Shown here: piece by piece, positions 18,001-21,000 of the stretch
Layout: each line of letters starts with the position of its first letter
Numbering within the stretch: position 1 is the stretch's first letter
Assembly: GCF_013167455.1 (NCBI RefSeq)
Contig: NZ_CP038328.1
Strand: one strand, 5' to 3'
Length of the DNA stretch: 64,000 nt
Origin: Escherichia coli O157:H7
GTDB lineage: Bacteria > Pseudomonadota > Gammaproteobacteria > Enterobacterales > Enterobacteriaceae
Made by a program: the position numbers

Positions 18001-21000
18001 GTTTAACCTTTATCACAGCCAGTCAAAACTGTCTTAAAGGAGTGTTTTATGTCACAAACTATCGACCTGACCCTGGACGGCCTGTCCTGCGGTCACTGCG
18101 TTAAACGCGTGAAAGAAAGTCTCGAACAGCGCCCGGATGTGGAACAAGCGGATGTGTCTATCACTGAAGCGCACGTTACCGGGACTGCCAGTGCAGAACA
18201 GCTGATCGAAACCATCAAACAAGCGGGTTATGACGCATCTGTAAGCCACCCAAAGGCTAAACCGCTGGCGGAGTCATCAATCCCGTCGGAAGCACTGACA
18301 GCGGTTTCTGAGGCGCTTCCGGCAGCGACCGCCGATGACGATGACAGCCAGCAGTTGCTGCTGAGCGGCATGAGCTGCGCCAGCTGTGTCACCCGCGTAC
18401 AAAATGCGCTGCAAAGCGTACCGGGCGTCACTCAGGCACGGGTAAACCTGGCGGAGCGTACTGCGCTGGTGATGGGCAGTGCCTCCCCACAAGATTTAGT
18501 GCAGGCGGTGGAAAAAGCGGGCTACGGCGCGGAAGCGATTGAAGATGACGCGAAACGCCGCGAGCGCCAGCAAGAAACCGCCGTCGCTACGATGAAGCGC
18601 TTCCGCTGGCAGGCAATTGTTGCACTGGCTGTGGGTATCCCGGTAATGGTCTGGGGGATGATCGGCGATAACATGATGGTCACCGCTGACAACCGCAGCC
18701 TGTGGTTGGTTATCGGCCTGATAACCCTGGCAGTGATGGTTTTCGCCGGCGGCCATTTTTACCGCAGTGCATGGAAAAGCCTGCTGAACGGTGCGGCGAC
18801 GATGGATACGCTGGTGGCGCTGGGTACGGGTGTGGCGTGGCTCTATTCGATGAGCGTCAACCTGTGGCCGCAGTGGTTCCCGATGGAAGCGCGGCATCTT
18901 TACTATGAAGCCAGTGCGATGATTATCGGTCTGATTAATCTCGGTCATATGCTGGAAGCGCGCGCACGTCAGCGTTCTTCAAAGGCGCTGGAGAAATTAC
19001 TCGATTTAACTCCGCCGACGGCGCGCCTGGTTACTGACGAAGGTGAAAAAAGCGTGCCGCTGGCGGAAGTTCAGCCAGGCATGCTACTGCGCCTGACGAC
19101 GGGCGACCGCGTGCCAGTAGATGGCGAGATTACCCAGGGCGAAGCATGGCTGGATGAAGCGATGCTGACGGGCGAACCTATCCCGCAGCAAAAAGGCGAA
19201 GGCGATAGCGTCCATGCCGGGACAGTGGTACAGGACGGTAGCGTTCTGTTTCGCGCCAGTGCGGTTGGCAGCCATACCACGCTATCAAGGATTATTCGTA
19301 TGGTGCGCCAGGCCCAGAGCAGCAAGCCAGAAATCGGTCAGCTGGCGGATAAAATCTCAGCCGTATTTGTGCCGGTAGTAGTGGTTATTGCGCTTGTCAG
19401 TGCGGCAATCTGGTATTTCTTTGGTCCGGCACCGCAGATTGTCTATACCCTGGTGATTGCCACCACGGTGCTGATTATTGCCTGTCCGTGTGCGCTGGGG
19501 CTGGCGACGCCGATGTCGATTATTTCCGGCGTCGGGCGGGCGGCTGAGTTTGGCGTGCTGGTGCGGGACGCCGACGCGCTGCAACGCGCTAGTACACTCG
19601 ATACCGTAGTGTTCGATAAAACCGGGACGCTGACCGAAGGGAAGCCGCAGGTTGTCGCAGTGAAAACATTTGCTGATTTTGACGAAGCGCAGGCGCTGCG
19701 TCTGGCGGCGGCACTGGAACAAGGTTCCAGCCATCCGCTGGCGCGGGCGATCCTCGATAAAGCAAGCGATATGCAGCTGCCGCAGGTCAACGGTTTCCGC
19801 ACATTGCGCGGGCTGGGCGTGAGCGGTGAAGCTGAAGGTCATGCGTTATTGCTGGGCAATCAGGCGCTGTTAAATGACCAGCAAGTTGATACTAAAGCGA
19901 TTGAAGCAGATATTTCAGCTCAGGCATCGCAAGGGGCAACGCCTGTGCTGCTGGCGGTTGACGGGAAAGCGGTAGCCCTGCTGGCTGTACGCGATCCGTT
20001 GCGTAGTGATAGCGTGGCGGCGCTGCAACGTCTGCATAAAGCGGGATATCGTCTGGTGATGTTGACCGGGGATAACCCAACCACCGCCAATGCGATCGCC
20101 AAAGAAGCAGGGATTGATGAGGTGATCGCCGGGGTGCTGCCGGACGGTAAAGCCGAAGCGATTAAACGCCTGCAAAGTGAAGGACGTCAGGTGGCAATGG
20201 TGGGCGACGGCATTAACGATGCGCCAGCGCTGGCCCAGGCGGATGTCGGCATTGCAATGGGCGGCGGCAGTGATGTTGCCATTGAAACCGCGGCGATTAC
20301 CCTGATGCGCCATAGCCTGATGGGCGTTGCGGATGCGCTCGCTATTTCCCGCGCAACGCTGCGCAACATGAAGCAGAACCTGCTCGGCGCGTTTATCTAC
20401 AACAGTATCGGTATTCCGGTCGCCGCCGGTATTTTGTGGCCGTTTACTGGAACACTGCTTAACCCGGTAGTTGCCGGAGCGGCAATGGCGCTCTCGTCGA
20501 TTACCGTAGTGAGTAACGCCAACCGGTTGCTGCGGTTTAAACCGAAGGAATAAGTACGTCATTGCGGATGCGCTGCTTTAGGGTGGCGCATTTGGCATCG
20601 ACGCATGACTGCCGGATGCGGCGTAAACGCCTTATCCGGCCTACGGTTCAGGCACAGGTTTGTAGGCCTGATAAGACGCGTAAGCGTCGCATCAGGCAAT
20701 GGTGCTCGGATGCCGGATGCGGCGTGAACGCCTTATCCGGCCTACGAGATGAAGCGATGTTTTGGCCTTACGCGACCTTTTTTGCACGCTCTTCACGGCG
20801 TGCCAAATATTCAGCCACTGTTTCAATCCGTCCCAATTCTTCCTGGGTGCGCATGTTGTTTTCAACTTCCCAAAGATCAACTGCCGCCTGGAGGTTTAGC
20901 CAAAAATCGACTGTGGTATCAAAAACTTTCGCCAGACGGAATGCCATCTCAGTGGTGAGTTTACGATTGTTATTGATCAGTGCACTGACGCTATTACGAT

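Follow-up and report, generated by a model that had tools for sequence, protein, structure and literature searches.

Descriptions of REP/BIME elements date back to the 1980s, and rayT encodes a REP-associated tyrosine transposase (TnpA-REP). Among the known arrangements, BIME-2 is defined by Y and Z2 units that alternate and point in opposite directions and by a copy number that varies (PMC3333891), and in PMC2817692, which cites Espeli and Boccard 1997 for it, BIME-2 is listed as a site of DNA gyrase binding and cleavage. REPs have further been described as local, context-dependent elements of 3'-UTRs that act as partial Rho-dependent terminators and as mRNA stabilisers, both of which apply to REP325; REPs between convergent genes accompany a higher expression of both genes, and genome-wide the genes ending in a REP do not have a longer mRNA half-life and the dependence on context is strong (10.64898/2026.03.23.713779).

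We have analyzed a window of 64 kb, meaning the whole stretch of 64,000 nucleotides, from Escherichia coli O157:H7, in which the original prediction had placed canonical REP palindromes at two convergent gene junctions, copA-ybaQ and ybaL-gsk. The two stretches with REPs match O157:H7 chromosomes at 100% identity, and the window is oriented in reverse of the K-12 coordinates, around 500-511 kb. The gene names and the convergent orientation of both pairs agree with how RefSeq annotates K-12 and identical O157:H7 records; between ybaQ and ybaL lie ybaP, chiX, ybaK, ushA and fsr. Using consensus searches that allowed up to three mismatches, with shuffled windows as controls, we found exactly five REP units in the 64-kb window, three at the copA-ybaQ junction and two at the ybaL-gsk junction (Table 1). 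The Y consensus matched three times, always on the + strand and with 1, 0 and 2 mismatches in order of position, and the Z2 consensus matched twice, both times on the - strand, with 0 and 1 mismatch. Neither search gave any match in the shuffled window, and the chance expectation was likewise 0. The 14-nt REP tail CTTATCMGGCCTAC is confined to the five units when the window is searched for it, and an nhmmer profile built from these units recovers just the same five in 64 kb (E<=2e-8), the next non-self match beyond the palindromic self-matches having E>0.7. Loose head and tail patterns and nhmmer were also applied for further or degenerate REPs, and the resulting matches at 22732, 63306 and elsewhere were rejected as being at chance level.

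Table 1: Features of the two REP-bearing junctions and further elements of the 64-kb window.
Feature	Position	Strand	Evidence or remark
Very long gene with tandem repeats of about 300 nt (100 aa)	1-13000	-	runs off the window start
copA	18049-20553	+	
5' end of copA	18049-18260	+	homologous to the second, joined CDS of K-12
Non-REP hairpin directly after the copA stop codon	20563..20597	+	whole-spacer fold, allele alignment
Y-type REP unit 1 (GCCGGATGCGGCGTAAACGCCTTATCCGGCCTAC)	20611..20644	+	1 mismatch; nhmmer E 2.5e-10; hairpin -21.3 kcal/mol, z -5.0
Tail-to-tail linker, 17 nt (GGTTCAGGCACAGGTTT)	20645..20661		repeats in register in the 5- and 9-unit alleles
Z2-type REP unit 2, inverted versus its neighbours	20662..20697	-	0 mismatches; hairpin -21.4 kcal/mol, z -6.6
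Head-to-head linker, 14 nt (AATGGTGCTCGGAT), copA-ybaQ	20698..20711		sequence
Y-type REP unit 3, 22 nt from the ybaQ stop codon	20712..20745	+	0 mismatches; hairpin -21.3 kcal/mol
ybaQ	20768-21109	-	annotated as HigA-family antitoxin
ChiX/SroB small RNA, between ybaP and ybaK	22040-22123	-	RF00368, 82.1 bits
ybaL	26088-27764	+	
Z2-type REP unit, ybaL-gsk, CATGCC variant	27799..27834	-	1 mismatch (in stem); hairpin -14.8 kcal/mol, z -3.2
Head-to-head linker, 14 nt (ATTGAGAGCAAAAT), ybaL-gsk	27835..27848		sequence
Y-type REP unit, ybaL-gsk	27849..27882	+	2 mismatches, compensatory; GTAG foot 14 nt after the gsk stop
gsk	27897-29201	-	stop codon 27897-27899
dnaX programmed -1 frameshift element	35802-35866	-	RF00382, 96.8 bits
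acrB-tomB spacer	47799-48343		unusually long (545 bp), non-coding, no REP, no Rfam match
4.5S/SRP RNA gene ffs	52500-52596	-	RF00169, 68.1 bits

Besides the REP units, some other features of the window were recorded. Where the very long repeat gene overlaps 13000-20600, identical O157 records annotate this adhesin as 'siiEA: BapA-related adhesin SiiEA', and a gene for a TolC-family outer-membrane protein lies in the same stretch, which we regard as accessory because at least 80% of it is covered in just 953 of 5422 genomes. The joined CDS at the start of copA in K-12 is annotated there as a soluble Cu(+) chaperone made via programmed frameshifting.

The hairpin folds agree with the consensus matches. 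Each unit folded alone, on either strand, has as its MFE structure an imperfect hairpin whose stem is interrupted by a mismatch and whose GTAG/CTAC foot stays unpaired, with energies from -13.9 to -21.4 kcal/mol and z-scores from -3.0 to -6.6 against shuffles when both strands are considered. In the Y unit next to gsk, a G>A change on one side of the stem is compensated by C>T on the opposite side, so that the pairing is kept, and the stem mismatch of the neighbouring Z2 unit is not a local defect, as an identical 36-mer flanks rayT in K-12. All five units are therefore the imperfect palindromes that the original prediction had expected, none failed to form one, and the pattern search proposed along with it led to the same five units. 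Its two intervals were correct to within 15 nt, and only their exact edges have to be revised: 20596-20748 begins 15 nt ahead of the first REP unit and 27803-27885 cuts 4 nt off the Z2 unit. When the whole spacers are folded, adjacent inverted units can also pair together into one long REPIN-like hairpin. The separate hairpin behind copA (Table 1) lies outside the BIME in the same 3' UTR, and the 5' part of this stretch, through GGTGGCGCAT, is kept in all alleles including the REP-free one according to the allele alignment. At the other junction the 8-mer GCCGGATG, which corresponds to the head of a Y REP, is found at 27773-27780, exactly 17 nt before the GTAG of the Z2 unit and thus at the same spacing as provided by the tail-to-tail linker of copA-ybaQ; other strains carry GCCGGATAATAGGCG at this position. 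This 8-mer may be the remnant of a third REP unit, but it is too short to be told from chance.

REP units should be both multi-copy and palindromic, and we found the five units to be both. Across 5426 complete E. coli genomes the REP-bearing query from copA-ybaQ has a median of at least 39 places per genome and that from ybaL-gsk a median of 10, compared with a median of 1 place per genome for the flanking core segments 13000-20600, 20760-27790 and 52800-64000. The segment 27900-52800 has a median of 2 places per genome; an extra copy of it as a repeat element was considered and rejected, as 8998 of the 9013 places are explained by the paralogy of acrAB. A search of the window for the ERIC/IRU core was negative. 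At this sensitivity the REPs are thus, as the original prediction stated, the sole interspersed repeats of the core; apart from the acrAB paralogue, everything else in the core is single-copy. That the REPs are known elements is likewise correct: they are ordinary, textbook E. coli REPs, and both loci are standard and already known REP/BIME examples with counterparts at the same loci in K-12. The K-12 RefSeq record has no repeat_region features at these REPs and therefore provides no official REP numbers for them.

Judged by their sequence, both clusters are BIME-2 and not BIME-1, because the units are Z2 instead of Z1, Y and Z2 alternate, the linkers are short and there is no IHF site (definitions of PMC3333891). 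From copA towards ybaQ the order is Y(+), 17-nt linker, Z2(-), 14-nt linker and Y(+), and from ybaL towards gsk it is Z2(-), 14-nt linker and Y(+); the linkers of 17 and 14 nt were compared with the S and the s/l/r classes of BIME-2 by length alone. The IHF consensus WATCAANNNNTTR has four matches in the window, none of them in either spacer.

Both clusters are also matched by the Rfam family of naRNA4, RF02564, which has a gathering threshold of 59.5 bits. Positions 20665-20742, covering units 2 and 3, score 87.1 bits on the - strand and 64.3 bits on the + strand, and positions 27802-27879, covering Z2 and Y of ybaL-gsk, score 74.7 bits on the - strand. Together with the report that RNA derived from REP325 bound HU and condensed the nucleoid (Qian et al. 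2015, PMC4550694), these scores could be taken to mean that each REP pair encodes a naRNA4-like, nucleoid-associated ncRNA, which binds HU, bridges cruciform DNA and condenses the chromosome. However, in the alignment the model is made up of a Y hairpin and a Z2 hairpin joined by a linker. It is thus a single Z2-Y REP pair that any BIME-2 unit will match, and the score restates the membership in REP/BIME-2. Moreover, the same laboratories have since described that neither deletion nor overexpression of REP325 has an effect on the nucleoid, that there is no stable complex of HU, cruciform and naRNA4 and no REP-REP contacts in Hi-C, and that the RNA is present at about 1-2 copies per cell (10.64898/2026.03.23.713779). 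We also detected no promoter-like site inside either spacer, the lone consensus match per scan falling into coding sequence. A role of these loci as naRNA4-like genes is therefore highly improbable.

GC-rich hairpins between convergent genes might also be ordinary intrinsic, i.e. Rho-independent, bidirectional terminators that resemble REPs by coincidence, and some REPs do coincide with intrinsic terminators. In both spacers (20554-20767 and 27765-27896), however, no GC-rich hairpin followed by a T-run was found on either strand, and the sequences belong to a high-copy family and are not locus-specific hairpins, so that we assign next to no probability to such a coincidence. As the shared 3' region of each convergent pair has no intrinsic terminator, the BIME-2 clusters would instead be transcribed at the 3' ends of both mRNAs. 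Their hairpins would then most likely work for either transcript: they would stop transcription in part, assisted by Rho, and block 3'-to-5' exonucleases.

All five units are extragenic and lie between the stop codons of the convergent genes. The distance from the stop codon to the nearest REP unit is 57 nt for copA, 22 nt for ybaQ, 34 nt for ybaL and 14 nt for gsk. As summarised in PMC12306157 for Liang et al. 2015, a REP within 15 nt after the stop codon lowers the translation of the upstream gene. One could thus imagine that the Y unit on the gsk side is mainly a translational down-regulator whose hairpin stalls the terminating ribosome, leading to mRNA cleavage and trans-translation, as its GTAG foot starts just within this limit on the - strand. 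However, the first paired base is located 18 nt from the gsk stop codon, which makes the case borderline and dependent on how the distance is counted, and the gaps of the other three genes are all longer. We therefore consider stalling as the main role of this unit to be very unlikely, and return to the bidirectional 3'-end hairpins as the preferred reading.

In order to follow the clusters through the species we compared alleles from complete E. coli genomes. At copA-ybaQ the cluster consists of 0, 1, 3, 5 or 9 units, represented by strain G5 (0 units, 57-bp spacer), WP2-W18-CRE-03 (1 unit), O157:H7 (3 units), K-12 and FDAARGOS_944 (5 units) and KMi029 (9 units, 517-bp spacer). Between any two alleles with at least one unit the length difference is a multiple of exactly 101 bp, equal to Y, 17 nt, Z2 and 14 nt taken together, and this allelic series matches the copy-number variability published for BIME-2 (PMC3333891). 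When the ranking was sampled at even intervals, each of the 0-, 1-, 3- and 5-unit classes accounted for about a fifth to a quarter of the genomes. The REP-free allele is not a clean excision, as 19 nt replace 75 nt of the one-unit allele, and consequently neither a target-site duplication nor an insertion mechanism can be read from it. About a quarter of the sampled genomes do not have any REP at copA-ybaQ, and the cluster is thus dispensable there.

The gene downstream also varies, as ybaQ is missing altogether in one strain. In strain G5 a gene for a RelE/ParE-family toxin is located directly upstream of ybaQ, and this toxin-bearing allele is the REP-free one (our locus L004, 889-944). In the window the gap between ybaQ and ybaP is just 137 bp, so that ybaQ of O157 and K-12 is an orphan, antitoxin-like regulator.

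At ybaL-gsk the arrangement of O157 and K-12 is common to about 86% of the genomes. Some genomes have a single, different REP there, and some strains have replaced or lost the pair. In strain EE72d (NZ_CP065136.1 3922330-3923790) the Z2 unit of ybaL-gsk is split in its central loop by IS1397, with GACGCGCCA on the left and GCAAGCGTC on the right of the IS and an imperfect 4-bp duplication (GCCA vs GCAA). The central loop of REPs is also the published target preference of IS1397 (PMC1525189, PMC3333891).

A connection to rayT is suggested by the unit types. In K-12 the single-copy rayT is flanked by a Y-Z2 pair on one side and by Z2-Y-Z2-Y on the other, forming a 'REPtron' (our locus L010, 1459-2335), as described by Nunvar et al. 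(PMC2817692) for the REP units around this gene. Two of the three Z2 copies there are 100% identical to the Z2 unit of ybaL-gsk, including its stem mismatch. rayT is present in 3574 of 5426 genomes, among them that of cattle strain 147. This strain is a sister record of strain 149, whose sequence matches the window at 100% identity, and judging by it the source genome of the window probably carries rayT as well.

The polymorphism raises the question whether the clusters are nothing more than selfish or neutral repeats that depend on RayT and have no effect on their neighbours. Presence or absence and the range of 0-9 units among otherwise near-identical loci would fit this, as would the replacement or loss of the ybaL-gsk pair in some strains, and since many strains are REP-free at copA-ybaQ the cluster there may be neutral or selfish. 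On the other hand, the compensatory double change preserves the stem of the Y unit at 27849-27882, and genome-wide REPs are associated with the expression of convergent pairs, an association with which neutrality at these two loci would still be compatible. Pure neutrality is thus a possible explanation, if a rather unlikely one.

Taken together, we consider it very likely that both sites are BIME-2 clusters, i.e. non-autonomous repeats of the RayT system, which would serve as bidirectional 3'-end hairpins for both mRNAs of each convergent pair. They would expand and contract in whole Y+Z2 steps, either through RayT-mediated strand exchange or through replication slippage or recombination between tandem units. 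As DNA they may bind gyrase, and they are also a target for REP-specific insertion sequences. What our analysis itself establishes is the identity and structure of the units, the copy number of their family, the polymorphism, the targeting by IS1397 and the lack of intrinsic terminators. From the literature on other REPs and BIMEs we infer the action of RayT, the binding of gyrase and the effect on the transcripts of copA, ybaQ, ybaL and gsk; copA and gsk appear in the supplementary tables of 10.64898/2026.03.23.713779 in differential-expression lists only. It could also be imagined that the number of REPs at copA-ybaQ (0-9) is a heritable, promoter-independent dial by which each strain sets its own level of the copper exporter CopA and/or the orphan, HigA-like regulator YbaQ and that, at the same time, the Y unit at ybaL-gsk reduces the translation of Gsk by ribosome stalling, a combination that seems quite unlikely to us. 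Beyond a correct annotation the importance of the two loci is small. Nevertheless, the series of 0, 1, 3, 5 and 9 units at copA-ybaQ might be a natural test bed for the tuning of 3' ends and of convergent-pair expression by REPs, and the loci are useful as markers of recombination, of IS1397 or IS621 insertion and for strain typing.

Compared with known systems, both clusters share a pair of inverted REPs with BIME-1/RIP (Y-L-Z1 with IHF site), which differs by its Z1 unit and by the IHF site in its long L linker, whereas Z2, linkers of 14-17 nt and no IHF match are found here. With the REPINs of the RAYT system (Bertels and Rainey, PMC3116915; Nunvar, PMC2817692) they have in common the inverted REP pairs that can be folded as one long hairpin, and the same Y and Z2 unit types as here flank rayT in K-12; in contrast, REPINs are isolated doublets, and E. 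coli BIME-2 are tandem arrays of pairs. REP325/naRNA4 (yjdM-yjdN), whose proposed nucleoid role is disputed and to which the window loci are likened by sequence and covariance score, is built from the same Z2-Y block, and both loci lie above the gathering threshold of this family. It has 12 units between tandem genes, whereas the clusters of the window have 3 and 2 units between convergent genes. The closest system are the E. coli REP or palindromic units Y and Z2 in BIME-2 (Gilson, Bachellier, Hofnung; PMC3333891), with which both clusters share the 0-2 mismatches to the consensus, the GTAG/CTAC foot, the internal stem mismatch, the extragenic 3' site, the alternating orientation, the short linkers and the strain-variable tandem copy number, and from which they differ in nothing substantive.
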